Shown: positions 37,775-54,157 of the stretch, in pieces
How positions within the stretch are numbered: the first letter of the stretch is position 1
How the letters are laid out: each line of letters opens with the position of its first letter
Source of the DNA: an uncultured Bacilli bacterium
Lineage (GTDB): Bacteria > Bacillota_I > Bacilli_A > RF39 > UBA660
Direction of reading: 5' to 3'
Length of the DNA: 64,000 bases
NCBI GenBank assembly: GCA_944332295.1
Contig: CALVJR010000002.1
Coordinates: 3,555 to 67,554 of the forward strand
Position numbers and translations under genes: made by a program
The notes under the pieces: generated by a model
What the model was told of the DNA's origin: nothing
The model's input: the letters and a program-made list of their open reading frames with translations, nothing else
Database searches by the model: none

Positions 37775-37805
37775 GCAGGTGAAGATAGTGAAGCGGAGAA
37801 GTAAG

Positions 37806-38594: not shown

Positions 38595-41481
38595 AAAGAT
38601 TTTAAAAAGGGCTTTGTTGGTTATTGTATTGGTCTTTGTAGCTTTCTTTGGTTTCCGTGAAATCATGAGTTTTGTTCCTGATTCTGATTCTGTGGATACA
38701 GATTCTTATGATGTTCAGCGTAGAGAGACGCAGACTTTAAAAACTACTGACGGTGCGACTTGCGGATCTTCAGAAGAGATGAATGGTCATTATGGACCAA
38801 AAGTTTCTTTTGATGTTAGTTCTAGAACTGCTACTATTACTGTTAAAAATGGTAGTTTTAAAGTTACTTCTGTAAGTGATCAAAGCATATTAGTTGATGA
38901 TCCTACAACACTTGGTGTGGTATCTCGTAATAATCCTATGGTTATTCGATATGGTAATTTTTCTGGAGATGTAGTTTTACACTTTGTGTTAGCCGAAACT
39001 GATGATAAATGTCTTTCTTATGATGAAGCTACAGAAATTAATTCTGCAGGTCAAAAAGTAGGAACGTATGAGTTTGATTTGACTTTACAGTTAAAAGCAC
39101 AACAAGAAACTCCAAAAAAAGTAAATGAAAATTATAATGGTATTTGTGCCGCTTTTAGAAATGGTACAGGATATGATACTTATAAAGATGTTTTATCTGG
39201 TGCTGGAGTAAGTAGAAATGAGTTTGGTAGTTACAACTATGCTGCTGTTAGTGCGGCAGGAAAAAGAGAATATGAACAAGTATTATCTTACTGTTTTAAT
39301 GCTAATGAGGTTAACTTTAACTATTCTGAAGCACAAGTTGCATCTATGATTAGTTCTGCTATTGATATTTTGAGAAAGAAAGAAGCTTCTGGAGCTATTG
39401 ATGATACTCCGGTATCTGAAGATTTTATGACTGCATTTAATGATGCAAAGAATAGAGCAATTTCTTTAGGTCATGATTATTCTAGTCGTGTTTCTGATGG
39501 TAGTTTAGATGATTCACGTTTTGGAATGGTTTGTGATTGGACAAAGAAGGCAGAGGGTAGTACCGGTGATGCTTATTATGTTAATAAAGATTATTATTAT
39601 GCTAAGGAAGAAGATTCTGAGGGTGTAAGTTATAATTATCACTATACTGGTAGTGATGAAAATGTTTCTGGTGTTACTGAGACAGTTTCTGGTGGTTCTT
39701 GTAAGAGAATATGTGAAGAGTCTGTTGTGGTTGAATATGGACCCCCAGTTGGTACAAAAGCAGGACTTTGTTTTGAGTATAAAGTAAAGGTTACTAGTAG
39801 AGTAGTGTGTCAGACTGATACCTCTGGTATTACAGCACCTACTACTCCAGCTATTTGTACACCAGTTCCTATTTGTAATGATCTTTCTGGACTTACTCAT
39901 CAAGGTGGACCAAATGAGGATTTTGAACAATGTATCAATGAATGTGATGGTGGTAAATATACTTCAAGATGTAGTAATAAATGTTACCGAGAAGCTTATG
40001 GTGATGAAGATTCTTCAGTTGATCCGTTAGCTATTCGTTACGGTGAAGATATTGTTGCTGAAAAGATGTGGAGTTCTACTTTCCCTGGATATGAAGGGCG
40101 TTATGAATGGGAAAATGGTAGCATTGTTTGGGAAGGTAGCGGTTATGGTCGTTGGTATGAAGTTTTTGAAAATGCCAGAACTCAGGCTGACCATGGTAGA
40201 TACAATGTTTATGATGGATTTAAGAAACATGATTATGGTAACGGTGTTGTTTGTGATGATAACTGTGTTTGGTCAGGATGTGATGAACATGACTATTTGA
40301 ATGAAGAAGATGCTGCAGCAGATACAGTTGAAAACTTAAGAAAATATAATCAAGCGATTTCTCGTTGTCAAGCATCAGCAAGTTGTACTACTAAAACTGC
40401 ATATTTTGAAATTAGTGTTGATTATACACATGATGTTGATGGTACTGAAAGAGAAGAGACTATTTCATTCCCTTATAATTCTAGTGAACCATCTAAATTA
40501 CCAAGTTTAGGTCAAGGTCAAGAGACTGCTAGTCCTGGTCGTACTGAAATATTCTTGAGTGATGGAGCTGATTATAATGGTTATGATGGATGTTATGTAA
40601 GCTCAAGTGAAAGAAACTGGTATCAAGCAGAATGGGGATTCCCTGGTACTTGGATTAATAATAAGTCAGGTGATATTTCATTTGTTGATAAAACTGGTAA
40701 TAATGCATGGCATCTAAAAGAAGATAAATTCTGTATTCCTGGTGATGCTAAGAGTGTTAATACACTTTGGTGGGAATGGAATGAATTAGGTGATCATTGT
40801 TATCCTGCAGATCAAATTGCTGCTGATATTGATTATAATATTCATGCTTCTACTACTGATTTTGGATTCTTTGGATGGAACTTTGATTTTGAATGTTTCT
40901 ATGCTCTTAGAAATGAAGTTTGTGATCCTGATATAAGAGGATGTTGTCGTCCTCCGGAAGGTTCTCCAGGTGATCCTGATGATCCTGATGATCCAGGAGG
41001 CGGTGGTGATACTCCAACTACAACGGTTTATGATTATGCATTTAGAATTGTAGAAACTTCTGATTTATTCCCTGAACCAGAAGAAAGTACTGATAGTAAC
41101 ACACCTAGTATTGCTGGTGTTGGACGTCAACCTGGTTATAACTGGACTTTAGGAATGAGTTCTGAAGATACTTCAATCTTGACAGCATTAAATGCTAAAA
41201 ATCCAGATTATAAGATTGATCCATTAGCTTTGATTGATAATATTCAGTCAAGACAAAATATTTATAGTGATGATACTTATGTGGATTATAAGTTTGTTCT
41301 TGATACAGAAACATTATCTAAGATTCGTGAGTTTAATAGAAATAAAAAATATACTGATTTTGATGGAGAGTTTAGAACTAAGAATGGACTTACTGTTTAC
41401 TATAGTGATTTATGGAGTGAGATTGGTGATGCTGTAATTACTAAAGGTACTCCAGGTGTCAATAACGAAAGGGAGGGATAA
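38581..41481 (+). CDS. Large cysteine-rich secreted/anchored protein (966 aa), function unknown
   Basis: N-terminal TM/signal anchor (ALLVIVLVFVAFFGF). I count about 27 Cys, mostly in close pairs (CKRIC, CTPVPIC, CINEC, CSNKC, CDDNCVWSGC, CQASASC, GCC). A PGDPDDPDDPGGGGDTPTTT linker precedes the last roughly 170 aa. No family recognised. Confidence 0.6.
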   Translation: MQKHKKILKRALLVIVLVFVAFFGFREIMSFVPDSDSVDTDSYDVQRRETQTLKTTDGATCGSSEEMNGHYGPKVSFDVSSRTATITVKNGSFKVTSVSDQSILVDDPTTLGVVSRNNPMVIRYGNFSGDVVLHFVLAETDDKCLSYDEATEINSAGQKVGTYEFDLTLQLKAQQETPKKVNENYNGICAAFRNGTGYDTYKDVLSGAGVSRNEFGSYNYAAVSAAGKREYEQVLSYCFNANEVNFNYSEAQVASMISSAIDILRKKEASGAIDDTPVSEDFMTAFNDAKNRAISLGHDYSSRVSDGSLDDSRFGMVCDWTKKAEGSTGDAYYVNKDYYYAKEEDSEGVSYNYHYTGSDENVSGVTETVSGGSCKRICEESVVVEYGPPVGTKAGLCFEYKVKVTSRVVCQTDTSGITAPTTPAICTPVPICNDLSGLTHQGGPNEDFEQCINECDGGKYTSRCSNKCYREAYGDEDSSVDPLAIRYGEDIVAEKMWSSTFPGYEGRYEWENGSIVWEGSGYGRWYEVFENARTQADHGRYNVYDGFKKHDYGNGVVCDDNCVWSGCDEHDYLNEEDAAADTVENLRKYNQAISRCQASASCTTKTAYFEISVDYTHDVDGTEREETISFPYNSSEPSKLPSLGQGQETASPGRTEIFLSDGADYNGYDGCYVSSSERNWYQAEWGFPGTWINNKSGDISFVDKTGNNAWHLKEDKFCIPGDAKSVNTLWWEWNELGDHCYPADQIAADIDYNIHASTTDFGFFGWNFDFECFYALRNEVCDPDIRGCCRPPEGSPGDPDDPDDPGGGGDTPTTTVYDYAFRIVETSDLFPEPEESTDSNTPSIAGVGRQPGYNWTLGMSSEDTSILTALNAKNPDYKIDPLALIDNIQSRQNIYSDDTYVDYKFVLDTETLSKIREFNRNKKYTDFDGEFRTKNGLTVYYSDLWSEIGDAVITKGTPGVNNEREG

Positions 41482-41949: not shown

Positions 41950-41970
41950 AAAGTGGAAGGAGAGGATAAA

Positions 41971-42774
41971 ATGGGAAATTTTAGTAACGGAATAAAGAAA
42001 TTCTTATCTAATAAAAATACTGTTACAGTTGTTGGAGCTGTTGTTGCAGTGGTAGTACTATATGTTGCGTATTCTATGCGTGTTAATGCTGCTGTTAACC
42101 CTATTAGTGTTCCTTATGCGAGGGAACAGATTAATCCTGGAACACAGATTACTGAAGATATGGTAGGAACTATGCAAGTTCCTCCTTCTATGGTTCAGGA
42201 TGGTGTTATTACTAATCAGGCAGAGGTTATTGATAAATACTCTAATGCTGATACTTTAATACCAGAAGGTAGTTTATTCTTTACTCGACAAGTAGTTGAG
42301 AAGGAACAATTACCTGCTAATATTATTTTGGATTATCCAAAGGGTTACGTTTTATATAATATGCCTGTTAATATTGAAAGTACCTATGGTAACTCTATTT
42401 ACCCTGGTAACTATATTGATATTTACTTAAAAGCTGTACATAAAGTAGCTGAGGGGCAAACTGCTACTGATGATGAAATTATGTATGGTAAACTTATTGA
42501 AAATGTTAAGGTATTAGCTGTTAAAGATTCTTCTGGACAAGCTGTATTTACCAACTTAGATGAACAAAGAACTCCTGCAATGATTGTATTTGCAGTACCA
42601 GAAGAGCATTATCTTTTATTAAAGAAGGCTAGTTATTTACAAACTTATGATTCTGAACTTGTTCCAGTTCCAACAAATGAAAGCTTAAAAGATGAACCTG
42701 GAGATTTGGAAATCAGTAGTGCTACTTTACGTGATTGGATTAATACTGTTACATATTGGGATGAAGGTATGTAA
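41971..42774 (+). CDS. Flp pilus assembly protein CpaB/RcpC-like (SAF domain)
   Basis: N-terminal TM, SAF-like segment (VPYAREQINPGTQITEDMV), and the VKVLAVKDSSGQ region typical of CpaB. ATG follows GGAAGGAGAGG. Confidence 0.65.
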   Translation: MGNFSNGIKKFLSNKNTVTVVGAVVAVVVLYVAYSMRVNAAVNPISVPYAREQINPGTQITEDMVGTMQVPPSMVQDGVITNQAEVIDKYSNADTLIPEGSLFFTRQVVEKEQLPANIILDYPKGYVLYNMPVNIESTYGNSIYPGNYIDIYLKAVHKVAEGQTATDDEIMYGKLIENVKVLAVKDSSGQAVFTNLDEQRTPAMIVFAVPEEHYLLLKKASYLQTYDSELVPVPTNESLKDEPGDLEISSATLRDWINTVTYWDEGM

Positions 42775-42806
42775 TTGTTAGTGTAGAATAAAAAGGAGTG
42801 GGTCAT

Positions 42807-44423
42807 ATGAACGAGAATATTTTTGATAAACTGGATTTTGGACCATTACGTCCTTTACTAGATAATGATGATATTACAGATATTTCTTTTGATAATAATG
42901 GTCAGATTTGGGTTCGTTCTCTAACTCAAGGTTCTTTACGAGTTGAGGTTCAAGGACTTACACCTGAATTTGTTGAAAAACTTGCTTTTCAGTGTTCGAA
43001 TGTCATGGGTACAACATTTAATAATGCAAAACCGTTTTTGGATGCTGAATCTGCTGAATTACGTTTGAACTTTGTGCATCCATCTATTGCAACAAATGGA
43101 ATAGCCATGGTTATTCGTAAGACACCAGCTAAGATTCGATTAGAAAAGGATAAATTATTGAAGGATGATTACTTCACTCAAGATATTCATGATATTTTAA
43201 TTAAGTGTGTTGAAGGTCATTGTAACATTATCGTTTGTGGAGAGACTGGTTCTGGTAAAACTGAATTTGTTAAGTATCTTGCTAGTCATACTCGTACTGA
43301 TGAGAAAATTATTACTATTGAGGATACGTTGGAGTTACACTTGGATCGTATCTTTCCACAACGTGATATTGTTGCGATGAAGACGAATAATGTAGCTAGT
43401 TATACTGATGTTTTGGTTACTTGTATGCGTCAGAATCCAAAATGGATATTACTTTCTGAGGTTCGTAGTGCAGAAGCTGTTTCTGCGGTACGTAACTCTA
43501 TTTCTTCAGGACACAATATTTTGTCTACTATTCATGCGGATAAGGCTTCTGCTATTCCTTATCGTATGTATAGTTTGATGGAGACAGATTTAGATGTTAA
43601 TCAGTTTTTGAATACGATTTATCGATATATTCAAATAGGTGTACATATTAAAGCTTATTATAGTAAAGAAAAAGGAAAATTTCATCGTGAAGTGGATGAG
43701 GTGTGTGAGTTCTATGTTGATGAGGATAACAAACCACAATGTAGAATTATTTATCAAAAACTATTTGGTCAAGAACCTGTTATGCGTAAGCCTAGTCCAC
43801 ATTTGATTGAATATTTAGAAAATCAAAATATTGATATTTCAGCTATTACAGGACATTTAAGTGATGATTTACCTTTTAAGGATGATCTTGAAAGGGAAGA
43901 ATATATGGAGAATAATAATGCTAATGGGAATAGTATGAATGATGCTTTAGAGGTAACTGATAGTTCTAGTGATACTTCTACAACTGTTGATGTTGCTACT
44001 GTAAATGATATCTCTAATACTTTGGATGTTGTTCATGATACTCCTATTCAAGGTGCTGATGATGATACAGGAGATGAGCAAAGTTCTGTTAGTTTACCTA
44101 TTTCTGCTGATGAAGTTGCTATTATTGCAGATAATATAGAGGTTAATAATGATAATTCTGTTAGCTTGCCTACAGAGGGAGCTGGAGTTGTTATTCCTAC
44201 TCCGGTTGCTAGTGTTTCTCCAGCTGTTACTTTAGAGGTTCCACCAGATGATAGTGTTAGAAAAAATATGGAAGCGCCAATAAAGTCTAACTCTGATGCT
44301 AATGTTTCTAATGACAATTCTGTTCCAATAGAACAGGCAAATGATAGTCAATCTATTGTTACTAATCAGGCAGTAGAGTTACCTTCCACCGTAGATTTTT
44401 CTTCGTTGGATAATTTGGAATAG
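42807..44423 (+). CDS. CpaF/TadA-type (VirB11-superfamily) secretion ATPase with a 170-aa low-complexity C-terminal tail
   Basis: Walker A GETGSGKTE, Asp box IEDTLEL, Walker B region RQNPKWILLSEVRSAEA, and His box GHNILSTIHA. The Tad assignment is supported by the two T2SSF-type genes immediately downstream. Confidence 0.85.
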   Translation: MNENIFDKLDFGPLRPLLDNDDITDISFDNNGQIWVRSLTQGSLRVEVQGLTPEFVEKLAFQCSNVMGTTFNNAKPFLDAESAELRLNFVHPSIATNGIAMVIRKTPAKIRLEKDKLLKDDYFTQDIHDILIKCVEGHCNIIVCGETGSGKTEFVKYLASHTRTDEKIITIEDTLELHLDRIFPQRDIVAMKTNNVASYTDVLVTCMRQNPKWILLSEVRSAEAVSAVRNSISSGHNILSTIHADKASAIPYRMYSLMETDLDVNQFLNTIYRYIQIGVHIKAYYSKEKGKFHREVDEVCEFYVDEDNKPQCRIIYQKLFGQEPVMRKPSPHLIEYLENQNIDISAITGHLSDDLPFKDDLEREEYMENNNANGNSMNDALEVTDSSSDTSTTVDVATVNDISNTLDVVHDTPIQGADDDTGDEQSSVSLPISADEVAIIADNIEVNNDNSVSLPTEGAGVVIPTPVASVSPAVTLEVPPDDSVRKNMEAPIKSNSDANVSNDNSVPIEQANDSQSIVTNQAVELPSTVDFSSLDNLE

Positions 44424-44438
44424 AGAGGAGTGAATTTT

Positions 44439-45341
44439 ATGTATTTAGAAGAGTTAATCTTTCTACTTGTACTTATGATATTAATATTTCTATATCGCAA
44501 TTATAAGGGACAGAATATTGGTAAGTTTATTACTAGTCAAGTACAAGGTGTTTATGATAAATTTGCTCCTTATTCTTTTAAAGTAGTCCGTGAAAAGACA
44601 AAGGAATTAGGTCAAGAATATACGGCTAGGCAATATATGATACAAGTTATAGTTATGGCATCTTTTACTGGTGTTGTTAGTTATTTATACTTTTATAACT
44701 TATTTATTTCTTTAATTTATATTATTGTCGTTATTATGTTTATTCCTTATTTATCATATTTAAGATGTAAACGTATTTATAGTGAGTTTATTTTTGAACA
44801 AATTCAGGTTTATACTTCTAATACTATTATGGAATTTGCAACAACACAATCTTTTGTTAAAGCATTAGAAGGTGTTCGTAATTCTGGAATTTTGGAAGAT
44901 CCAGTAAAAAGTGATGTTGATCATATGATACAACTTGCCTATCAAAATGGTAGTATTGATGAAGCGTTAGCATATATGAGTCAACTATATCCATATTATA
45001 TTGTTAAGAATATGCATCAGCTATTTTTGCAAATTACTAAAGAAGGTGCAAGAAATTCTTTAGAATCTTTAGATAATATGCAACTTGATATCGATATGTT
45101 GGTTGAAAGTGTTTACCGCGACCGTATAGAACGTGCTTCTTTTCATAAGTCGTTTTTGCAATTTGGTATCATGCTTTACTTAATGGTTATGTTAGTTCAA
45201 TATCTATTAGGTAGAGAGACTTATTTAATATTGTTAGATCGTTGGTATATTAAAGTACTATTACATGGTGTGCTAATCGTTAATACTATTTTCTTATTAA
45301 AGGGAGAAAAATATTATAATGAGAATGTAGGTGCTGAATAA
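44439..45341 (+). CDS. TadB-like T2SSF-domain platform protein
   Basis: Topology is TM, TM pair, a cytoplasmic helical domain of about 130 aa (ALEGVRNSGILEDPVKSDVDHMIQLAYQNGSIDEALAYM), then two C-terminal TMs. ATG is 8 nt after GAGGAG. Confidence 0.65.
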   Translation: MYLEELIFLLVLMILIFLYRNYKGQNIGKFITSQVQGVYDKFAPYSFKVVREKTKELGQEYTARQYMIQVIVMASFTGVVSYLYFYNLFISLIYIIVVIMFIPYLSYLRCKRIYSEFIFEQIQVYTSNTIMEFATTQSFVKALEGVRNSGILEDPVKSDVDHMIQLAYQNGSIDEALAYMSQLYPYYIVKNMHQLFLQITKEGARNSLESLDNMQLDIDMLVESVYRDRIERASFHKSFLQFGIMLYLMVMLVQYLLGRETYLILLDRWYIKVLLHGVLIVNTIFLLKGEKYYNENVGAE

Positions 45342-46126
45342 TGGTAGAGATAGTTGTTGTTGGTGCTATTATTATATTTATTCTGATATATAATAATACT
45401 ATTGATAAAAATAAGTTTATTGCAGATAATGAGAAATATTTTAATATTTTAAGAGAAGAGGATTATGACTTTTTAGTATATGCTAGATATGGTGAAGATG
45501 TAGATCCTAATCAATTATTTAGAAAAAGAATTTTTTATGCTTTGATTGCAGGTATCGTCTTTTTATTTATATTTTTAAATCAATTATCTTTTCTTAATGT
45601 AGTATTTTGTATTGTAGTTGCAGCATTAATTTTTAAAATGCCATATATGAATTTGAAGACTTTTTATAAAGCACATTTGCATGATATTGATGTTATGTTG
45701 CCATACTATTTAAAGAGTTTGGAAATTTTGATTCAACATTATACTGTTCCAGTTGCTTTAGGTAAGTCTATAGATGATGCTCCAGATATTTTTAAACCTG
45801 GACTTCGTAAATTAATTGAACGTATTAATTCGGGTGATTCTACTATTGATCCTTATATGGAGTTTGCTAATACGTATCCAGTTAGAGATTCTATGAGAAT
45901 GATGCGTTTGTTATATCGTCTAGGACTTGGTTCTCAAGAAAGAAAGCAAGAACGTTTGATGATGTTTTCTAGAACGGTTTCTAATTTACAAAATAAAGCT
46001 CGTGAGACTAAATATAAAGAGCGTCTAAATCATATGGAAAATCAGACAATGGTTATGCTTGTTGTAACTGGTGCTGGTACTATGGTTGTTATCCTAATTT
46101 CTATGATGATGATGTTTAATATGTAA
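45341..46126 (+). CDS. TadC-like T2SSF-domain platform protein
   Basis: Same topology as the previous gene. T2SSF-like core: MLPYYLKSLEILIQHYTVPVALGKSIDDAP..GLRKLIERINSGDS...MEFA. Start overlaps the previous stop. Confidence 0.7.
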   Translation: MVEIVVVGAIIIFILIYNNTIDKNKFIADNEKYFNILREEDYDFLVYARYGEDVDPNQLFRKRIFYALIAGIVFLFIFLNQLSFLNVVFCIVVAALIFKMPYMNLKTFYKAHLHDIDVMLPYYLKSLEILIQHYTVPVALGKSIDDAPDIFKPGLRKLIERINSGDSTIDPYMEFANTYPVRDSMRMMRLLYRLGLGSQERKQERLMMFSRTVSNLQNKARETKYKERLNHMENQTMVMLVVTGAGTMVVILISMMMMFNM

Positions 46127-46156
46127 AATTTGAATTGTAAAATATTTTAAAATATA

Positions 46157-46185
46157 TTGTTAAATATAAGTTATCTTGTTATAAT
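46157..46185 (+). promoter_or_regulatory. Strong sigma-A-type promoter in front of the pilin-like gene
   Basis: TTGTTA, 17-nt spacer ending in TG (extended -10), TATAAT. It lies in the only sizeable intergenic gap (106 nt) in this part of the locus. Confidence 0.65.
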
Positions 46186-46232
46186 ATAAGTGTATATCAT
46201 ATATACAATAGAGAAAGGATGTGTGTTTTTAG

Positions 46233-46403
46233 ATGAAAGCAGCAACAGGTGAATTAAACTTAACAGTTATTACTCTTATTGCTATAGCAGCAATTATTGG
46301 ATTTTTCTGGATTATGTGGCCAACTATCCAGGAGGCTATTAATAAACAATGGGGTAATATTTCTGGTGATTATCCTGGATATATTATTGTTGAAAGAAGA
46401 TAG
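46233..46403 (+). CDS. Flp/type IVb pilin-like small protein (56 aa; not in the ORF track)
   Basis: Hand translation gives MKAATGELNLTVITLIAIAAIIGFFWIMWPTIQEAINKQWGNISGDYPGYIIVERR. It has a short polar leader ending in Gly, then a 22-residue hydrophobic helix. It sits between TadC-like and TadE-like genes. The canonical Flp EY dipeptide is absent and the RBS (GAAAGGA) is 13 nt away. Confidence 0.55.
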   Translation: MKAATGELNLTVITLIAIAAIIGFFWIMWPTIQEAINKQWGNISGDYPGYIIVERR

Positions 46404-46422
46404 AAAAGGGTAGGTGTAGAAG

Positions 46423-46872
46423 ATGCGGGATGCTTATGGTGGTATTGTCAATTTAGCGATGATTGTAGTTTTCCTTCTTTTGGTATGTGGATATTTAGCA
46501 TTTAATGTAAACTACACGAAAGCGTTCCGTGTCAAAAACTATATTATTACTACAATGGAACAATATGAAGGTAATTGCGATAGTGAATCTAGTGCTTGTG
46601 CTCAAAAAATAAATAATTATATACGTCAAATTGGTTATAGTGCACCTGATTTTGATTTAACTAGAGATGGTTATACTTGTCATTTAGGGTACTGCTATAA
46701 GGAATTTGAAGTAGGTGCAGAAGCAGGTGCTGTTCAAGAAAATGCAGATAAGGTTTATTATAGAGTAGTTACTCAAATTAATATTGATATTCCTATTATT
46801 AATAAAATTATGCCTAATTTAAGAATTTTTCAAGTTTCTGGTAATACAAAGTTGATTACACCATTTAATTAG
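46423..46872 (+). CDS. TadE-like pseudopilin
   Basis: N-terminus AYGGIVNLAMIVVFLLLVCGYLAF resembles the TadE/TadF hydrophobic N-domain. The 120-aa extracytoplasmic part has two Cys pairs. Confidence 0.5.
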   Translation: MRDAYGGIVNLAMIVVFLLLVCGYLAFNVNYTKAFRVKNYIITTMEQYEGNCDSESSACAQKINNYIRQIGYSAPDFDLTRDGYTCHLGYCYKEFEVGAEAGAVQENADKVYYRVVTQINIDIPIINKIMPNLRIFQVSGNTKLITPFN

Positions 46873-46886
46873 AATAGGGTGATTAC

Positions 46887-47870
46887 ATGAATGTTATTGT
46901 TAGTAATGAGCAACGAAATGTTTTATCAGGTTTAGATATAGATGTTATTAAGAACATTTCTGGTGAATATGAAGCTAGTGAATTAGTAGAAATGTTTAAA
47001 AATTTCTTTTATAATAAAATGGTTTTGGATGTTACTGCTATTAAAGATTTTCATAATATTAAAAATTTTCAAGTGTTAGCTATAGGACTTGATGTCGAAA
47101 AAATAGTTTTCTTTTTACCAGAAGGTACGGATGTATGTACCTCTAATTTTTTATCTAAACTAGTTTCTATGGGAATTTATAATTTTACTACTAATGTTGA
47201 AGGGGTAAAATATCTATTAGAACATCCCAATTCTTATAAGGAAGTTGCACATATTCAGCAGTTGAATGATGTGTCTACTACTATTACTGAAAAAGTTGAA
47301 AATGGTTCTAATGTAATAGGTATTAGGAATGTTACTGAGCATGCTGGTGCTACAACTTTTATATATATATTAAAAAAAGAATTAAAAGCTCGTTTTGGTG
47401 ATAATATTATTGCTATAGAAATCAATAAGAATGATTTTCAATATTTTGGAGATAAAAATATGATTTCTATTACTTCTGATCAGATACAAAATACTTTAAC
47501 TCGATATGAGGGAGCGTCAGTAATATTAGTTGATTTAAATGATTTCCCTGATGATTATTTTTGTGGGGATGTTTTATATTTATTAGAACCATCTATTATT
47601 AAACTTAATAAATTGATGCGAAAAAATAATATGATTTTTTCTAAACTTCAACATAAAAAAATTGTTTTGAATAAGAGTTTATTAACTAGTAAAGATATTG
47701 TTGATTTTGAATATGAAGCTAAAGCTAAAGTATTTTATAATATGCCACCTTTAGATGATAGAAGAAAAAATCCGGCTTTTGATGACTTTTTATCTAGGTT
47801 AGGTTTAATTAATAAACCGCAAGAAAAAAAGGAATCAGGTGGGAAAATATTTGGTTTATTTCGTAGATAA
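46887..47870 (+). CDS. TadZ/CpaE-like protein (pseudo-receiver plus ParA/MinD-like domain with degenerate Walker A)
   Basis: The only clearly cytoplasmic unknown in the locus. The first 105 aa or so look receiver-like. The segment VIGIRNVTEHAGATTFIYILKKEL occupies the deviant Walker A position of CpaE/TadZ but lacks KGG, and a later ILVDLND resembles Walker B. Confidence 0.4.
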   Translation: MNVIVSNEQRNVLSGLDIDVIKNISGEYEASELVEMFKNFFYNKMVLDVTAIKDFHNIKNFQVLAIGLDVEKIVFFLPEGTDVCTSNFLSKLVSMGIYNFTTNVEGVKYLLEHPNSYKEVAHIQQLNDVSTTITEKVENGSNVIGIRNVTEHAGATTFIYILKKELKARFGDNIIAIEINKNDFQYFGDKNMISITSDQIQNTLTRYEGASVILVDLNDFPDDYFCGDVLYLLEPSIIKLNKLMRKNNMIFSKLQHKKIVLNKSLLTSKDIVDFEYEAKAKVFYNMPPLDDRRKNPAFDDFLSRLGLINKPQEKKESGGKIFGLFRR

Positions 47871-47872
47871 GG

Positions 47873-47901
47873 TTGACAAATCTAATGTTTTAGGTTAATA
47901 T
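47873..47901 (+). promoter_or_regulatory. Near-consensus sigma-A promoter for the small VirB2-like gene
   Basis: TTGACA, 17-nt spacer, TAATAT; followed by RBS GAAGGAGAGG. Confidence 0.7.
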
Positions 47902-47925
47902 ATAGTCATTGAAGGAGAGGTTGTT

Positions 47926-48276
47926 ATGTTAGATTTATTTCAAATTGGTGTTAATGTAAATGCAATGGATGATGGCTGTGGTGGTTTATCTTCTATTGTT
48001 AAAATTATAAAACGTGGTGTTTTTCCTATTGTTCAAATAGGTATTCCAATTCTTTTAATTGTTTTTGGTACCATTGATTTAGGTAAAGCAGTTATTTCTA
48101 GTGATGATAAAGAGGTAAAACAAGCACAAAGTAGACTAATTAAGAGATGTATTTATGCTGTAGCTATTTTCTTTATTACTACGATAGTAAGTATTATTAT
48201 GTCTTTAGTTGCAACAGGTGCTGATCAGGATGAAGCAAATACTACTGGTTGGGCTGAATGTTGGGAGAACGTTTAA
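47926..48276 (+). CDS. VirB2/TrbC-like two-helix hairpin membrane protein (candidate T4SS pilin)
   Basis: 116 aa: N-terminal segment with Cys18, TM1 (IGIPILLIVFGTI), charged loop (DLGKAVISSDDKEVKQAQSRLIKR), TM2 (IYAVAIFFITTIVSIIMSLV), and a tail with Cys112. It has its own promoter and terminator and sits directly upstream of VirB6-like genes. Confidence 0.6.
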   Translation: MLDLFQIGVNVNAMDDGCGGLSSIVKIIKRGVFPIVQIGIPILLIVFGTIDLGKAVISSDDKEVKQAQSRLIKRCIYAVAIFFITTIVSIIMSLVATGADQDEANTTGWAECWENV

Positions 48277-48286
48277 TGGAAATTTA

Positions 48287-48315
48287 AATAGCAAAATATT
48301 TGCTATTTTTTTTTT
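48287..48315 (+). terminator. Internal hairpin terminator/attenuator after the small VirB2-like gene
   Basis: 9-bp stem aatagcaaa / tttgctatt, 3-nt loop, T-run of about 10. Confidence 0.6.
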
Positions 48316-48356
48316 ATTCTGTTATACTTATTCTGTATAAATGTTTATATGGAGTG

Positions 48357-49562
48357 ATGCATGTGAAACGGTTACGTTTGTTTTTGCTTTTATTTATCTT
48401 TGGTTTGATTTGTATTCCATATAATACGAGTGCTTTAGGTAATGAGGTAGCAAGTTGTAATTATCAATTTACGGATGCAAGTGGTAGTCAAATAAATTTA
48501 AAATATCGTATTTATTCAGACGGAAGTGTAAAACTTCCTTTTGGTGATGGTGATAATTTTACTAATACAGGTGTTTCTTGGTATCATAGTGATAATTTTA
48601 CTAGTAAATTTTATGATGCTTCTATTGTTGATGAGTCTACTGTTACTTGTCCTTCTATTTTTGTTCAACAGAATGAATCAGGAGTAACTGTGTATCCTTA
48701 TCCATTATCACAAAATGTATGTACGGGTAATTGTTATAATGTTACTTCTTCTGTTAAATTAACAAGAGATGCTAAGGATAGAGGAATACAATCTAAGAAA
48801 ATTATATCTTCTTGTGCTGGCTCGTCCATGGGATTTTATAATCGTCAAAGTTATGTGTATCCTTATTTTAGATTATTTTCTGATGGTACTAGAGAATGGT
48901 CTATTGATGGTTCTAATTATGTAGGTGTTACAGAGTCTATTACAGGGTCTATTAATTCTAGTGAAAGATTTTCTATTTCTTTAAACGATTCTTTAATTAA
49001 CTCTATATATTCTTCTAATTCATTAACTTGTCCTGATAGGATGTATCGATGTGTCAGCAGTGCTCAGAATGGATATTCGTATGATTTATCTACTTCTGAT
49101 AATTCTTGTATGAATCCTGTATTTAGTGCAGGTGATGGACAGGAGTTTGGCTCTAATTATGCCAATCTTGGATATGGTGATCCTGATACAAGTGATGATG
49201 GCTCTGTTACTTTGGATGATTTAAGAGATGATTTAAGAGATGATTTAAACTCTTATGATCAAGTTACTGATTGTGTTGGTATTTTAGGTGATCCTAATAA
49301 TGAAGATTCTGTTGCTTGGCTATTACAACAGATATTAAATTATATTAAAATTTTAGGTCCAATTTTGGTTGTTATTTTAAGTAGTTTGGATTTTGCTAAA
49401 GCAATTATTGCTAGTGATGATGAGTCTATGAAGAAAGCTGAGAAAAAGTTAATGATTCGTCTTATTTTGGCAGTCGCATTATTCTTAGTTCCAACTTTAG
49501 TTAGTGTAATGTTAGATTTACTTGGATTTACTGCTGATGGACAATTGTGTTTACTAAAATGA
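48357..49562 (+). CDS. Secreted Cys-rich domain fused to a C-terminal VirB2/TrbC-like hairpin
   Basis: Signal peptide (LRLFLLLFIFGLICIPYNTSALG) and a domain of about 300 aa with 8 Cys. This is followed by a DDLRDDLRDDLN repeat and a C-terminal hairpin (GPILVVILSSLDFAKAIIASDDESMKKAEKKLMIRLILAVALFLVPTLV) homologous to 47926-48276. The start could also be the GTG at 48363. Confidence 0.6.
   Translation: MHVKRLRLFLLLFIFGLICIPYNTSALGNEVASCNYQFTDASGSQINLKYRIYSDGSVKLPFGDGDNFTNTGVSWYHSDNFTSKFYDASIVDESTVTCPSIFVQQNESGVTVYPYPLSQNVCTGNCYNVTSSVKLTRDAKDRGIQSKKIISSCAGSSMGFYNRQSYVYPYFRLFSDGTREWSIDGSNYVGVTESITGSINSSERFSISLNDSLINSIYSSNSLTCPDRMYRCVSSAQNGYSYDLSTSDNSCMNPVFSAGDGQEFGSNYANLGYGDPDTSDDGSVTLDDLRDDLRDDLNSYDQVTDCVGILGDPNNEDSVAWLLQQILNYIKILGPILVVILSSLDFAKAIIASDDESMKKAEKKLMIRLILAVALFLVPTLVSVMLDLLGFTADGQLCLLK
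49215..49250 (+). repeat. In-frame 12-nt tandem repeat x3 (gatgatttaaga) encoding DDLR-DDLR-DDLN
   Basis: Read directly: gatgatttaaga gatgatttaaga gatgatttaaac. Confidence 0.9.
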
Positions 49563-49577
49563 TGGAGGTGATGATGA

Positions 49578-51503
49578 ATGTCTGCAACTGAATGGTTAGA
49601 TCCGGATCTTATTGGAAATATGCTTCGTACATTTGGAAGTGTTCTTAACAGTTGTGTCTATGACTTGTTAAGTGCTATGTATCAAATTTTCTTTAATGTT
49701 TCTAGTGCTCAACTTTTTGAGAATGAAACAATAAAGAATTTTTATGGAAGAGTCCAATTAATTATTGGTGTTTTTATGGTTTTTAAATTAGCGGTTTCTA
49801 TTTTACAAGGCATTATGGATCCGGAGAAGTTTACTAGTGGTAAAGAAGGCGGTTTTGGTAGTGTTATTACTAGAGTTATTGTTGCCTTAATTATGTTAGC
49901 TGTGATTGTTCCTATTAATGTTCCTGATGTACAGAATGCTAATTCTTATGAAAAATATATTAATAATAATGGTTTATTATTTGGTACTTTATATTCTTTA
50001 CAGGATCGTATTTTATCTGAGAATACATTAGGAAGATTAATACTGGGTACGACAGATGATGATGATGATGATTCGGATTCTAGTTCTGCGACCCAGCAAG
50101 AAAAGTTAAAGAGAGCTGCTAATATTTTTGCTTCTACGATTTTAAAAGGATTTCTTAGAATAAATATGCGTCCAGAAGACGAATGGGTTGATGATAATGA
50201 TAATAATCCGCAGAATTGGTATTGCGGGGAACATTTGAATGACTCTGATATTTCTGATGCACTTACAGTTTATAATCAATTAGATGTTTCTACAGGTGCT
50301 TTGTTAAGTAGTAATATGATTCATGCCAAATGTAATGTAGAAGGTGGATTTTTTGGTGATGAGAAATTTTTATTCTATTTTAACTGGACAATTTCTCTTG
50401 TCATAGGAGTCATTTTTTTGGTTATTTTAGTTGGTTTTACTATTGATATTGCTGTACGTTCTGTTAAGTTGGCAATTCTTCGTTTATTGGCACCAATTCC
50501 GATTATAAGTTATATAGAACCGAAATCAGCAAAAGATGGTATGTTTGCTTCCTGGGTAAAATCTTTGACTTCTACCTATTTAGATTTATTTTTACGTTTA
50601 GCTATTGTTTATTTTGTTATTTTTATCATCCAAGATATGATGGTTAATGGAATTGTTATTGATCAAGCAGGTGGAATGGTTGGTATTGTATCTGTTATAT
50701 TTATTTGGATAGGTTTATTCTTCTTTGCGAAGATGGCTCCTAAGTTTATCAAAGATGCTCTTGGAATAAAAGGTCCAGGTATGACTAATATTGGTCTTAG
50801 TGGTATGCTTTCAGCTGCTGGTGCTGTTCGTCAAGGTGGAACACTGATGGATGCTTTGGATGCAGGAGGTTCTGCTGTTGATACACAAATTCAAGCGTAT
50901 AATCAAGGAAAAGCAGCTCCTGGTTTAGGTGCAACATTTAACGCAGGTAGAGATTTAGCTGCTCAAATGATTACTGGTAATGAAAAGGCAACTTATAGAG
51001 GAATGAATAGAGGTAGAAGAAGATTAGCTGCTGAAGGTATTACTCCTTGGGAAGCAGATAAGGTTCATAGTGCTTCTATTGCAGCAGAGGCATTTACTGA
51101 ACGTATGGCCGACGATGCTAGGAGAGGTAAATTTAGGTATATGGACGATGCAGGAAATATGAATACTTATAAATGGAAAGATGATCATGGTATTGTTCAT
51201 GATGTTACTAATAAGAAGGAAATGTCTTTAGCGTTAGCTCAACAAAGAGAACGTTCTGGAATCTTAAAAGCTCAAGATTCTAAGATTGATGCTGAAGTTA
51301 AGAAGAATATGCAATCTCGTAGTTATAGAGATAAGAAGAGAATGCCAAATACGAAAGATCCTAGTATTATTAATGTTCAAGGAAGACTGGATCAAAGACG
51401 TTCTAATAGATATAATGCTAGATATAATGGTAGTACTTATACACCTAGAGCACCTGGAGGTAATACACATGCGGCTGGGGCTGATCTTACGGATCATTTA
51501 TAA
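49578..51503 (+). CDS. VirB6/TrbL-like polytopic T4SS channel protein
   Basis: 641 aa with at least 6 TM helices. The N-terminal region is typical of Gram-positive mobilome TrbL/VirB6-like proteins. It has a D6-S-rich loop and a basic C-terminal tail of about 230 aa. Its position between VirB2-like and VirB3/VirB4-like genes supports the call. Confidence 0.6.
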   Translation: MSATEWLDPDLIGNMLRTFGSVLNSCVYDLLSAMYQIFFNVSSAQLFENETIKNFYGRVQLIIGVFMVFKLAVSILQGIMDPEKFTSGKEGGFGSVITRVIVALIMLAVIVPINVPDVQNANSYEKYINNNGLLFGTLYSLQDRILSENTLGRLILGTTDDDDDDSDSSSATQQEKLKRAANIFASTILKGFLRINMRPEDEWVDDNDNNPQNWYCGEHLNDSDISDALTVYNQLDVSTGALLSSNMIHAKCNVEGGFFGDEKFLFYFNWTISLVIGVIFLVILVGFTIDIAVRSVKLAILRLLAPIPIISYIEPKSAKDGMFASWVKSLTSTYLDLFLRLAIVYFVIFIIQDMMVNGIVIDQAGGMVGIVSVIFIWIGLFFFAKMAPKFIKDALGIKGPGMTNIGLSGMLSAAGAVRQGGTLMDALDAGGSAVDTQIQAYNQGKAAPGLGATFNAGRDLAAQMITGNEKATYRGMNRGRRRLAAEGITPWEADKVHSASIAAEAFTERMADDARRGKFRYMDDAGNMNTYKWKDDHGIVHDVTNKKEMSLALAQQRERSGILKAQDSKIDAEVKKNMQSRSYRDKKRMPNTKDPSIINVQGRLDQRRSNRYNARYNGSTYTPRAPGGNTHAAGADLTDHL

Positions 51504-51526: not shown

Positions 51527-51844
51527 GTGAATTATTTAATACCTGCTAATACTAAGAGAGGTCAATTAATCCTTGGATTATTTCGACCTTTCGATTTAAT
51601 TTTATTTTTATCCGGGGTGCTAGTTACTGTTATTTTACTTGCTTTTATGCCACTTACTAATACATGGCTTACTATATTAGTTGTAAGTCCTGCTGTTATT
51701 TGTGGGCTTTTGGTTACACCGGTTCCTTACTATCATAATATTTTAACTATTATTATAGAGTTATATGAATTTTGTACTACAAACCAAAAGTATTATTGGA
51801 AAGGTTGGTGTTTCATGAATGGCAAAGAAAATCACTGGAAGTAA
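51527..51844 (+). CDS. PrgI/VirB3-like small membrane protein
   Basis: 105 aa. The N-terminus MNYLIPANTKRGQLILGLFRPFDLILF, followed by two TM helices, matches the PrgI-family pattern. It lies immediately upstream of VirB4. GTG start. Confidence 0.6.
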   Translation: MNYLIPANTKRGQLILGLFRPFDLILFLSGVLVTVILLAFMPLTNTWLTILVVSPAVICGLLVTPVPYYHNILTIIIELYEFCTTNQKYYWKGWCFMNGKENHWK

Positions 51845-52370
51845 TTTTACAGAGAACTGGATTCCTGTAAAATCTATTCAAAATGGAATGATTGTTACTT
51901 ATGATAATTTAAAGGTATCCGGAGTTAAAATTTCTCCTCGAAATATCTTTATTCTCGATGCGCAATCACAAGATAATGTGTTAATTAGTTTAAAGAATTT
52001 TTATAATATGATTGATTTTGAGTTTTGGTTAGTTGTTGCAGATAGACCTGTTGATATTTCTGTTTATATGTCTCAACTTCAACTTTTATATAATGAGACT
52101 CAGTCTCCTGCTATACGTAAATTAATTATGCAGGATATTGATAAAGGTAATACTTTTATTAATAATAATATTGTTGATACGGAATATTATTTCTTATTTA
52201 AAGAAAAGGATCCTGATATAGTACAGAAGAAAGTCCGTATGTTGATTAATGGTCTTGCTAGTTGCGGGCTTAATGCTGCTCAAACTAGTAATGACGACTT
52301 AAGAATTATTTTAGATAATTTTTTGAATGGGGGAAATACTACTGAATTTGGGACGGTGATGCCTGTATGA
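51819..52370 (+). CDS. VirB4 N-terminal domain encoded as a separate ORF
   Basis: NWIPVKSIQNGMIVTYDNLKVSGVKISPRNIFILD matches the N-terminal signature of Gram-positive VirB4/TcpF/Orf16-type ATPases. ATGA overlap with the ATPase ORF. Confidence 0.65.
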   Translation: MAKKITGSNFTENWIPVKSIQNGMIVTYDNLKVSGVKISPRNIFILDAQSQDNVLISLKNFYNMIDFEFWLVVADRPVDISVYMSQLQLLYNETQSPAIRKLIMQDIDKGNTFINNNIVDTEYYFLFKEKDPDIVQKKVRMLINGLASCGLNAAQTSNDDLRIILDNFLNGGNTTEFGTVMPV

Positions 52371-54157
52371 GTACTAGTATTAGAAGTCAACTTGCTCCTA
52401 AAGGACTTGAGTTTCATCCTAGTGATTTCTTTATTAGTGATAAGTATGCAACTATTTTAACTGTTGTTTCTTATCCTAAATATATTGTTCCTGGATATTT
52501 ATCATCTTTAACAAATATGCCTGGTATTAAAGTTGTTGTTAAACATATACCAGTTCCTTTTCAAACTATGTCTAAAATGTTAAATAGAGAAGTTGCAGAT
52601 TTAAAGGAAAAATATCAGCGCGAGCGTGATCAAACTATGCGTGAGAGATATCGTCAAGATGCTGAGAGTTTGGAGTATTTTACATCAATGCTTGCTGGTA
52701 GCCAAGCTCGTATCTTTGATTTTCAAATGCATATTATGATTACTGCTGATACTAAGGAAGATTTAGAGTTAAAGAAAGTTAATGTTAAGAATTATTTGGA
52801 TGCGATGGAGTTAAAAGCAATTTCACTTCGTTTTGAACAAGAAAAAGTATTGAAGAGTATTTTGCCAATTTTTCCTTCGCAAGATATTGAACAACGAATT
52901 GGTACTCCAATTCCATCTGTTACTATAGCAGCAATGTATCCATTTATTTTTGATAGTATTAAAGATCCTGGACTTTCTACTTTACTTGGTGTTGACTTTT
53001 CAGGAGGAGTAATTTTATTTAATCAATTTTTATATAAGATTCGTAAAGAAAATAATAGAAATAATGCTAATATGATTATCCTTGGTACTTCTGGTTCTGG
53101 TAAGTCTACTGCTGCAAAGGTTATGCTTCGTACTCACATTCGTAATGGTTGTCAAATTGTTGCGATTGATCCAGAAGATGAGTTGCGTGAAATTACTCAG
53201 ACTTATGGTGGAGATACGGTTGATATTGGTAAGGGTGGAGAATTTGGTTTAATTAACCCTCTTGAAATTGTTATTGATGCGGATGAAGAAGAAATTAAAC
53301 AAGGTCTTGGTTATACCGTTTTAACTCGTACTTTACAATTTTTAAAAGCATTTTTAAAATATTATGATCCAACAATTACAGAAGATGTTTTAACAATGTT
53401 TAGTGAAATTGTACAAGATACTTATAAGCGTTTTGGAATTGATTTTAATACAGATTTTTCTAGATTTACTTCTAATGATTATCCGACATTTACTGATGTT
53501 TATGCTACTATCAAGGGTCGTTTGATGTCTATGACAGAACAGACACAAGAACGTGATATTATGGAGCGCTTAGAATTAAAGATTCGTCCACTTACTAAAG
53601 AATTACGTTTTTACTTTGATGGTCATACTACACTTAGTCGTGATAGTGATTTTATGGTATTTAATATTAAAGAGTTAATGAATACTGATTCTAATATTCG
53701 TAATGCTTTGTTCTTTAATGTATTGAAGTATGCTTGGGGACTTTGTTTGGACTTTAATGTTGATACGGTATTAATGGTAGATGAAGCGCATGTATTGCTT
53801 GGTGCTAATAACGTTCTTGGTGCGGAGTTCCTTGCACAAGTACAAAGGCGTGCTCGTAAATATAATACAGGTACCATTATTATTACTCAACAACCTAGTG
53901 ATTTTGCTGATCCTGGTGTTATTATGCATGGTAAAGCAATATTTGATAATGCATCTTACTATTTAGTAATGGGATTAAGGAAACAAGCAGTTGAAGATTT
54001 AAGTTTATTAATTGATTTAAATGATAGTGAAAAGGAGAGTATAAAGAGATATTCTCAAGGAGAAGCATTGTTTGTCTGTGGAAATAGGCGAATGCGTATT
54101 AATATTGCAGTTACTAAAGAAGAGTTAGACTCTTTCGGTTCTAGTGGTGGTTTTTAG
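52367..54157 (+). CDS. VirB4-family T4SS ATPase (C-terminal ATPase portion)
   Basis: Walker A LGTSGSGKST, Walker B LMVDEAH, and downstream IITQQPSD motif; 596 aa. Confidence 0.88.
   Translation: MSTSIRSQLAPKGLEFHPSDFFISDKYATILTVVSYPKYIVPGYLSSLTNMPGIKVVVKHIPVPFQTMSKMLNREVADLKEKYQRERDQTMRERYRQDAESLEYFTSMLAGSQARIFDFQMHIMITADTKEDLELKKVNVKNYLDAMELKAISLRFEQEKVLKSILPIFPSQDIEQRIGTPIPSVTIAAMYPFIFDSIKDPGLSTLLGVDFSGGVILFNQFLYKIRKENNRNNANMIILGTSGSGKSTAAKVMLRTHIRNGCQIVAIDPEDELREITQTYGGDTVDIGKGGEFGLINPLEIVIDADEEEIKQGLGYTVLTRTLQFLKAFLKYYDPTITEDVLTMFSEIVQDTYKRFGIDFNTDFSRFTSNDYPTFTDVYATIKGRLMSMTEQTQERDIMERLELKIRPLTKELRFYFDGHTTLSRDSDFMVFNIKELMNTDSNIRNALFFNVLKYAWGLCLDFNVDTVLMVDEAHVLLGANNVLGAEFLAQVQRRARKYNTGTIIITQQPSDFADPGVIMHGKAIFDNASYYLVMGLRKQAVEDLSLLIDLNDSEKESIKRYSQGEALFVCGNRRMRINIAVTKEELDSFGSSGGF

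Follow-up and report, generated by a model that had tools for sequence, protein, structure and literature searches.

Does a type IV secretion system (T4SS) of a Gram-positive gut bacterium carry pilin-like subunits, and by what means might the open ends of such subunits be held together? The question is raised by a 64,000-nucleotide stretch of contig CALVJR010000002.1 (assembly GCA_944332295.1; hereafter the window) from an uncultured bacterium of RF39, an abundant, uncultured order of gut Bacillota. At the head of a T4SS operon in this window lie two tandem genes for a small membrane module of two hydrophobic helices, and a third copy of the module is fused to a peptidoglycan hydrolase encoded elsewhere. 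Comparison of sequences and predicted structures leads us to read these modules as hairpins of the Pfam family PF18895 ('T4SS pilin') that belong to a chromosomal T4SS for which no relaxase is evident in the window, and whose two ends are most likely clamped by a disulfide bond. We give this reading as a whole a probability of about 0.6.

Three copies of a helical hairpin

The module is ~100 aa long and is encoded three times in the window, once alone, once at the C terminus of a secreted protein and once at the N terminus of a hydrolase:

47926-48276, + strand: stand-alone PF18895-type module, 116 aa (Pfam 18.1 bits, homologues, AlphaFold2 model, charge distribution)
48357-49562, + strand: secreted Cys-rich protein, 401 aa, with a C-terminal module (PF18895 19.3 bits, homologue alignment, AlphaFold2 model with a predicted local distance difference test score, pLDDT, of 81)
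28076-28927, + strand: NlpC/P60 (C40) peptidoglycan hydrolase, 283 aa, with an N-terminal PF18895-type module (PF00877 1.2e-15, PF18895 21.5 bits)

A six-frame scan of the 64 kb with a profile hidden Markov model of the module, based on its three families, recovers exactly these three open reading frames (ORFs) and nothing else at E<=10. A preliminary description of this DNA had placed three copies at the same positions, and both the ORFs and their coordinates hold. The hairpin regions share 31-32% identity in an alignment, and the two tandem copies are 42% identical over the core (BLASTP). With composition correction, BLASTP aligns the 116-aa protein with the C terminus of the 401-aa protein at E=5e-18 and with the N terminus of the NlpC/P60 protein at E=2e-10, whereas the latter two align with each other at E=1e-10. 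Pairwise E-values of 5e-18 to 2e-10 argue for true paralogy rather than hydrophobic noise.

The copies share an architecture of two long hydrophobic helices connected by a short loop rich in Lys and Arg. The stand-alone protein begins with an acidic N-terminal tail, followed by Cys 18, helix 22-57, the basic loop, helix 61-98 and an acidic tail that contains Cys 112 in a 'CW' motif. Its AlphaFold2 model (pLDDT 73) is a helical hairpin formed by these two helices, with a further helix at residues 107-115. In the 401-aa protein, a signal peptide precedes a β-rich ectodomain (residues 30-260), a disordered acidic linker (272-305) and the module itself (~nt 49272-49559), whose helices are predicted at residues 319-352 and 355-388. 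In the hydrolase, the module (~nt 28076-28405) is followed by the NlpC/P60 domain at residues 169-253.

In a Pfam scan, PF18895 is the sole pilin-type match for all three copies. The E-values lie between 0.0028 and 0.00025, and the matches span nearly all of the 71 profile positions. The family recurs among relatives: P0361 scores 27.8 bits, over the family's threshold; PF18895 is found at E<=1e-3 in 45 of the 142 representatives that the module profile retrieved; and precomputed PF18895 matches exist on orthologues of the hydrolase (PF18895+PF00877) and on P0238, a distant homologue of the 401-aa protein. Besides PF18895, no membrane family recurs in more than three of the 142, and no rival pilin family appears. 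An assignment to some unrelated membrane family, an outcome that the preliminary description had considered, is thus not what the profile scans return. At a cutoff of E<=1e-3 the module profile picks out 10,321 cluster representatives from a library clustered at 50% identity, of which 5,652 pass E<=1e-10; the family is therefore very large, and the Pfam model covers only part of it. The 116-aa protein has 943 homologues. One orthologue (P0041) bears the JGI name 'precorrin isomerase', an evident misannotation, and other members are unnamed or 'hypothetical'. Judged by their sequences, the three modules are paralogues in the PF18895 family.

Conserved cysteines at the open end

In both copies at the T4SS operon, one Cys shortly precedes helix 1 and another comes soon after helix 2. 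The contexts are DDGCGG and WAECWENV in the 116-aa protein (C18 and C112; codons 47977-47979 and 48259-48261) and TDCVG and GQLCLLK in the 401-aa protein (C306 and C398; codons 49272-49274 and 49548-49550), as the preliminary description had correctly quoted them. The NlpC/P60 copy, whose flanking cysteines went unmentioned there, has them too, with C12, C19 and C20 before helix 1 and C107 ('ACW') after helix 2.

The flanking cysteines are among the most conserved residues of the module, in orthologues and paralogues alike. The N-side Cys (CGGL or CKGL) and the C-side 'CW' are found in essentially all of the 120 listed orthologues of the 116-aa protein; a third Cys of this family, where helix 2 begins on the cytoplasmic side, can give way to Ala, Val, Phe or Leu. 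Sixteen diverse homologues of the 401-aa protein (34-78% identity) all retain C306 and C398, and in the NlpC/P60 family a 'C-x6-CC' motif is kept ahead of helix 1 and an 'ACW' behind helix 2. When 35 sequences of the three families are aligned (19-84% identity to the query), the only invariant columns are C18, P41, F82 and C112. The N-side position is Cys in 94% of the rows of the module alignment, and both flanking cysteines are present in 137 of the 145 best domain matches from the 50%-identity library. Of the other eight, four are evidently fragments, and three more have no C-terminal Cys but carry two or four cysteines on the N-side. In two of these three (P0493 and P0443), an extra Cys is found 11 residues beyond the usual N-side one. 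The flanking pair co-varies.

The ectodomain of the 401-aa protein offers a comparison. Four of its cysteines are likewise invariant in the 16 homologues, whereas the other four disappear strictly in twos (C153 together with C225, C232 together with C251), as is characteristic of disulfide partners. Among the 70 representatives that bear a signal peptide, 16 have exactly two cysteines in the mature chain, and in 14 of these 16 the second lies three residues from the C terminus. On this pattern of conservation, we consider it probable that the flanking cysteines are bonded to each other within the chain and that this disulfide clamps the hairpin at its open end.

Other explanations of the cysteines and of the chain ends were set aside. 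A lipobox does not fit the N-side Cys, as no hydrophobic leader precedes it in the stand-alone copy. A CaaX-like reading of the C-terminal 'CGLK/CLLK' is contradicted by the stand-alone tails, which vary and extend 4-8 residues past the Cys, and by the NlpC/P60 protein, in which the Cys is internal. Cyclisation by a neighbouring sortase was rejected because the neighbouring large proteins that were scanned contain no LPXTG-like motif and none was seen by eye in the pilin-like sequences.

Topology of the module

Because the module is a two-helix hairpin, both of its ends lie on one side of the membrane. That this side is the outside is suggested by the signal peptide and ectodomain that precede the module in one paralogue, by the wall hydrolase that follows it in another, and by the distribution of charges. 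The loop contains 4.6-5.8 Lys and Arg residues and has a net charge of +2.2 to +2.9, and the tails are net acidic in the 401-aa and NlpC/P60 families. Thus, the predicted topology has the termini outside and the basic loop in the cytoplasm, an arrangement that we regard as very probable. The preliminary description had allowed that the two cysteines might turn out to face opposite sides of the membrane; the hairpin, the fusions and the positive-inside charges instead place both on the same side, outside.

A second gene with a variable ectodomain

The 116-aa protein is found in 61 GTDB species representatives, all of them metagenome-assembled genomes of uncultured gut 'Bacilli/Tenericutes/Mycoplasmatota', including Candidatus Faecimonas (GTDB order RF39, family CAG-611, genome 1.4 Mb, 28% GC; PMC8035907). 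Most of the 61 loci keep the tandem of a stand-alone gene and a second gene that ends in the module. In relatives, the second gene always has a signal-peptide-like start. Its total length varies between species from 127 to ~450 aa, with the signal peptide and the C-terminal hairpin constant and the ectodomain swapped or lost, such that the latter ranges from near nothing (127 aa in all) to ~340 aa. The short forms consist of a signal peptide and then a ~95-aa hairpin, as in a classical propilin. A CX3C...CX3C mini-domain occurs in the second gene of one relative (L020).

In the window, residues 30-260 of the 401-aa protein (48444-49136) are modeled with pLDDT >90 as a β-rich domain. Foldseek finds no fold match for this ectodomain in the PDB (TM<=0.13), and as predicted it is an orphan fold. 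The start of the gene merits a remark, since its ribosome-binding site (RBS; GGAG, 48351-48354) is only 2 nt from the ATG at 48357. A GTG at 48363 is spaced normally and is used as the start in relatives; the true start is therefore more likely GTG 48363, which gives 399 aa.

Expression of the stand-alone gene

The short stand-alone gene is enclosed by signals of its own:

47873-47901, + strand: promoter TTGACA-17-TAATAT of the stand-alone gene (consensus scan, conservation)
47913-47919, + strand: RBS GGAGAGG of the stand-alone gene (conserved GGAG)
48286-48315, + strand: intrinsic terminator-like hairpin and T-run (fold energy, conservation)
48300-48328, + strand: second promoter TTGCTA-17-TATACT, with TG extension, for the 401-aa gene (consensus scan, conservation)

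The consensus match at 47873 alone means little, because the scan found 39 promoter-like sites in this AT-rich region against 34.8 expected. The promoter is credible because its TTGACA is invariant in 25 of 25 related species, down to ~54% protein identity. The -10-like hexamer and the GGAG of the RBS are kept at a fixed distance in the same 25 species. This conserved RBS also fixes the start of the 116-aa protein, upstream of which the frame is open for only nine codons.

The terminator consists of a 10-bp, AT-rich stem (48286-48295/48299-48308) and a T-run (48306-48315), with a fold energy of -12.6 kcal/mol (z=-4.2). It was missed by the consensus scanner because the stem has only two G-C pairs. 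By explicit pair counting over 15 species, 89% of cells are paired, versus 36-62% in slid controls; informative covariation was absent from the 15 species, and RNAalifold gave no consensus structure. The 3' arm of the terminator coincides with the -35 element (TTGCTA) of the second promoter, whose TG-extended -10 element, TGTTATACT, serves the next gene. The TGnTATACT block is kept across species, and the whole terminator-promoter block (48286-48328) is found in ~25 species.

Such an order, in which a strong promoter and a terminator enclose a short gene and a new promoter follows, would be expected of a subunit in large excess and, as far as sequence can tell, supports that role. The near-consensus promoter and the gene's own terminator had been pointed out before and both prove to be conserved across species. 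The conclusion drawn from them, that they are the expression signature of an abundant subunit, gains support, if not proof, from this conservation.

The T4SS operon and its surroundings

The two module genes sit between a set of Tad-like pilus genes and the genes of the T4SS:

41953-47870, + strand: Tad-like pilus genes directly upstream (PF16976, PF00437, conserved order)
49578-51503, + strand: VirB6/TrbL-like polytopic membrane protein, 641 aa (TrbL_4 22 bits, threshold 27; conserved position)
51527-54157, + strand: VirB3-like protein (51527-51844), VirB4 N-domain (51819-52370) and VirB4 ATPase (52367-54157) (NF045975)
54184-56544, + strand: SpoIID-domain protein, 786 aa (PF08486 1.6e-09, conserved position)
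57372-59924, + strand: VirD4-type coupling protein, 850 aa (PF02534 2.7e-56, PF12696, PF10412)

The three VirB3/VirB4 ORFs overlap one another (51819-51844 and 52367-52370) and correspond in order to positions 2-96, 100-276 and 294-891 of the NF045975 profile. This is the best NCBIfam match of the VirB4 ATPase (E=1.5e-102), which also matches NF045971 (E=5.4e-48); the TraC-like PF26593 is matched as well among the VirB3/VirB4 ORFs. The split of VirB4 is no sequencing frameshift, since it is conserved in relatives. The SpoIID-domain protein is a probable cell-wall remodelling enzyme of the T4SS, and a 260-aa protein is encoded between it and VirD4. The VirB4 of Firmicutes/Tenericutes type, VirD4 and the VirB6-like protein, the last one a weak match, form a T4SS set of the monoderm (MPF_FATA-like) kind. 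The module lies directly upstream of VirB6-VirB3-VirB4 in nearly all of the 61 loci that reach far enough downstream.

The Tad-like set comprises CpaB/RcpC, a CpaF ATPase, two TadB/C-like proteins, a 56-aa Flp-like protein and proteins of 149 and 327 aa. The 56-, 149- and 327-aa proteins match no Pfam family, and we infer the roles of the small proteins. The head-to-tail junction of Tad and T4SS genes recurs in nearly all related loci that reach far enough upstream. Preceding the Tad genes are a sortase, a 987-aa protein with 27 cysteines and DUF5411. The sortase gene overlaps the start of the gene for the 987-aa protein (37779-41481), and no substrate for the sortase is evident, because the neighbouring large proteins scanned have no LPXTG-like motif.

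The locus is flanked by housekeeping genes, with DnaE, BipA, GreA, RuvX, MltG and U32 peptidases on one side and rhodanese, DedA and RmuC on the other. The ORFs scanned in the window contained neither a relaxase nor an integrase domain, and no phage or lysis genes lie around the locus. A PD-(D/E)XK nuclease-family transposase-like ORF (PF12784; 17856-18734), far from the T4SS, is the only mobile-element-like gene in the window. Searching 72,556 plasmids by tblastn with the 116-aa protein and the profile consensus gave no match even at E<=1. The Tad-plus-T4SS gene order is conserved in the 61 loci, each from a species-representative genome, and this conservation across species indicates a chromosomal machine that is inherited vertically, not a mobile element. 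An integrative and conjugative element (ICE) or a conjugative plasmid is not supported within the window, on the sum of these points: no relaxase or integrase among the ORFs scanned, housekeeping flanks, an order kept in 61 species and no plasmid match. The window has a GC content of ~30%, a GC skew that is positive in every 2-kb bin, and large ORFs that are all on the + strand except for one of 152 aa (23658-24116, - strand). From the uniform skew and the ORF strands, it lies wholly on one replichore with extreme gene-strand bias.

The NlpC/P60 gene is ~20 kb from the T4SS, in a conserved IreB-RuvX-DUF1292-MltG-O-methyltransferase cluster that is also found in a relative (L071:6001-6837). In addition to PF18895, its product weakly matches an NCBIfam conjugation transmembrane family, pLS20_p028.

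Proposed mechanism and alternatives

In the mechanism that we propose, the hairpin would span the membrane such that its two ends face outward and its basic loop lies in the cytoplasm. The N-terminal tail of the 116-aa protein (17-30 residues, acidic) would cross the membrane without a signal peptide, perhaps in the manner of small coat proteins. With its own strong promoter and with transcription largely terminated after the gene, this protein would be the abundant major subunit of the structure that the machine assembles on or through the wall. The product of the next gene, in which the same hairpin is combined with a signal peptide and a lineage-variable ectodomain, would be a minor or display subunit, and the NlpC/P60 enzyme would use the hairpin as a membrane or machine anchor. 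Functionally, the intramolecular disulfide would then correspond to the peptide bond that closes TrbC, VirB2 and TrhA head to tail. In the minimal signal-peptide forms it would join residues ~4 from each mature end, for a near-cyclic topology.

What the subunits may assemble into is a more tentative matter. An extended filament of the 116-aa protein is possible, at odds somewhat below even. The same odds apply to a fuller scheme in which the protein polymerises on the VirB6 platform into a wall-spanning or extracellular filament, the ectodomain paralogue serves as a minor or tip subunit and the NlpC/P60 enzyme is recruited by its hairpin. A picture of the organism's way of life can be drawn further still, and it is speculative: RF39 bacteria would bear a T4SS-dependent, VirB2-like surface filament, of the kind proposed for Patescibacteria, with disulfide-closed subunits, a tip-adhesin ectodomain and a pilin-anchored NlpC/P60 wall cutter, used along with the Tad pilus for an epibiotic or host-attached lifestyle and not for plasmid transfer. 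We think this picture unlikely.

A number of observations weigh against disulfide-clamped T4SS pilins. None of the three window proteins reaches the gathering score of PF18895 (26.6 bits). Domain annotation recognised no thiol-disulfide oxidoreductase in the window. The AlphaFold2 confidence of the 116-aa model is low at residues 1-20 and 100-116. The number of cysteines in the mature chain is even in 49 and odd in 21 of the 70 signal-peptide-bearing representatives, as counted after a crude signal-peptide cut, so that parity is only 70% even. The stand-alone copy has no signal peptide, unlike VirB2/TrbC, and its N-terminal tail is acidic and without a hydrophobic core. In the 116-aa family at large, the C-terminal tail is acidic and the N-terminal tail is mildly basic near the helix (mean 3.6 Lys+Arg). 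With neither a signal peptide nor a clear charge difference at this end, the topology of the stand-alone protein rests mainly on its homology to the fused copies. The module is also joined to enzymes in other members, 11 times to NlpC/P60, twice to Amidase_5 and once to CHAP among the 142 representatives, and the housekeeping, cell-wall neighbourhood of the NlpC/P60 copy fits a membrane anchor at least as well as a pilin.

Further points on the same side concern the relation to proven pilins. An alignment of 35 module sequences compared by hhalign with seven annotated plasmid VirB2/TrbC proteins gave a probability of 0.1% (E=0.56), and a profile search with the module alignment found no pilin in the PDB. 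Foldseek returned only generic helical hairpins (E>1) for the 116-aa model, in a search that is a weak method for a two-helix fold. Neither AlphaFold2 model had a PDB match at E<=0.001. The window copies do not match PF04956 (TrbC/VirB2) at E<=1 in the Pfam scan. The matches that the PDB profile search did yield, a designed repeat protein and TM5-TM6 segments of G-protein-coupled receptors (GPCRs) at E>=0.003, were rejected as chance hydrophobic matches. The preliminary description had called the modules VirB2/TrbC-like. The part of that label which stands is membership in the T4SS pilin family PF18895 and a place in a T4SS operon; homology to TrbC or VirB2 proper is not detectable. As used here, 'VirB2-like' is an analogy from shape, size, operon position and the name of PF18895, not a claim of homology.

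In the main alternative, the hairpin does not polymerise. It would be a membrane component or docking anchor of the T4SS that brings ectodomains and hydrolases to VirB6/VirB3/VirB4, with the cysteines stabilising its exposed end; a docking role of this kind is also ascribed to other small membrane proteins of conjugation systems in Gram-positive bacteria. The fusions to NlpC/P60, CHAP and Amidase_5 enzymes and the housekeeping surroundings of the NlpC/P60 copy favour such an anchor, and its weak match to pLS20_p028, the lack of detectable homology between the module and proven pilins, and reviews that describe Gram-positive T4SSs as being without pili (PMC12857230) point the same way. However, the dedicated, conserved strong promoter and terminator of the stand-alone gene suggest a high stoichiometry, the conserved tandem of a plain and an ectodomain-bearing copy mirrors the logic of major and minor pilins, and essential pilin arrays of Patescibacteria are made up of members of the same Pfam family. 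We regard the anchor as a real contender, if a rather unlikely one.

It is also conceivable that the disulfides are intermolecular, with the N-side Cys of one subunit bonded to the C-side Cys of the next, and that they chain subunits together or tie the ectodomain subunit or the hydrolase to the stand-alone subunit. The cysteines lie on the same face, compatible ones exist in all three paralogues, and the NlpC/P60 copy has three on the N-side and one on the C-side. However, P0493 and P0443 have lost the C-terminal Cys and instead have a new one in the same chain, at a distance of 11 residues from that on the N-side, which suggests a partner within the chain. The minimal forms, moreover, have just two cysteines, near chain ends that emerge side by side from the hairpin. 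Chaining between subunits is therefore improbable.

That the module is an unrelated small membrane family (holin-like or immunity-like), with its closeness to the T4SS and its Pfam name coincidental or wrong, is very improbable, for although the window copies are sub-threshold in Pfam and the spurious weak GPCR matches show how easily hydrophobic hairpins are matched, it immediately precedes VirB6-VirB3-VirB4 in nearly all of the 61 related loci that reach far enough downstream, PF18895 is matched by 45 of 142 relatives with no other membrane family in more than three, and there are no phage or lysis genes nearby.

Comparison with known systems

The T4SS of Mycoplasma ICEs, with a VirB4 of the Mbov_0397 type (NF045975), is the best NCBIfam match of the VirB4 found here, and the N terminus of that protein is collinear with the VirB3-like segment. 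The single 894-aa protein of that system is split into three ORFs in the window. In further contrast to those elements, the window has no integration or relaxase genes and the locus is conserved vertically.

PrgK, CwlT and TcpG are membrane-anchored cell-wall hydrolases of Gram-positive T4SSs. Similar to them, the hydrolase described here is of NlpC/P60 type and is tethered by an N-terminal hydrophobic segment. It differs in that the anchor is a complete PF18895 hairpin, a paralogue of the putative pilin, and in that the gene lies outside the T4SS operon, by MltG and RuvX, while the operon carries a SpoIID-domain protein instead. Use of one module as an anchor for wall hydrolases and for variable ectodomains suggests a general route by which proteins may be targeted to monoderm T4SSs.

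The 401-aa protein resembles VirB5 and minor tip pilins in that its gene lies between the major-subunit gene and virB6 and its variable extracellular domain would be exposed, as that of a tip or adhesin subunit should be. VirB5 is a separate helical protein, whereas here a pilin hairpin is joined to a β-rich ectodomain that matches no PDB fold.

Conjugative pilins that are cyclised head to tail by a peptide bond are known from RP4 (TrbC), the Ti plasmid (VirB2) and R27 (TrhA) (PMC12037004, PMC13434634). The module shares with them a small hairpin at the start of a T4SS operon, both termini on the outer face and, in the 401-aa paralogue and its short relatives, a signal-peptide-like N terminus directly or shortly before the hairpin. 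It would also share covalently joined chain ends, as proposed here, with the cysteines ~4 residues from the mature ends in minimal relatives. In contrast to these pilins, the join would be a disulfide, no sequence homology is detectable, the stand-alone copy lacks a signal peptide, no TraF-like cyclase was recognised, and the envelope is monoderm. Closure of the hairpin, achieved by a peptide bond in TrbC, VirB2 and TrhA, may thus have arisen independently through a disulfide. If so, closing the open end would be a general requirement of T4SS pilins and not something peculiar to a few plasmids. The hypothesis is concrete and, given the invariant, outward-facing Cys pair, can be tested cheaply.

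A close parallel is found in Patescibacteria, where arrays of VirB2-like pilins (PF18895/PF04956) are essential in relaxase-poor chromosomal T4SSs (PMC12102498, PMC10633639). Neither paper mentions a flanking Cys pair; the word 'disulfide' does not occur in them, and 'cysteine' occurs once, in PMC12102498, of a hydrolase domain. A conserved Cys pair or disulfide in these pilin-like proteins was likewise not found in PMC12857230 or by full-text search, which covers a limited literature and is no proof of novelty. The systems of Ca. Southlakia epibionticum and TM7x agree with the present one in the PF18895 family and its two-helix hairpin of ~70 aa, in divergent module paralogues near virB4/virB6 with at least two in tandem, and in a chromosomal monoderm (MPF_FATA-like) T4SS that has no nearby relaxase and occurs in a small genome with type IV-filament genes as well. 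They differ in several respects. The host here belongs to the Bacillota (RF39), VirD4 is present, whereas the Southlakia system is reported to be without a coupling protein, and there are only two tandem copies, one of them with a large ectodomain, and one enzyme-fused copy elsewhere.

According to a 2025 review, VirB2 and VirB5 do not occur in Gram-positive T4SSs, with Patescibacteria as the only exception (PMC12857230). The PF18895 family was already known, and the locus is a second case beside Patescibacteria, in Bacillota, with a coupling protein and a pair of plain and ectodomain-bearing subunits. It thereby widens the exception to pilin-less Gram-positive T4SSs and links two unrelated lineages with small genomes.

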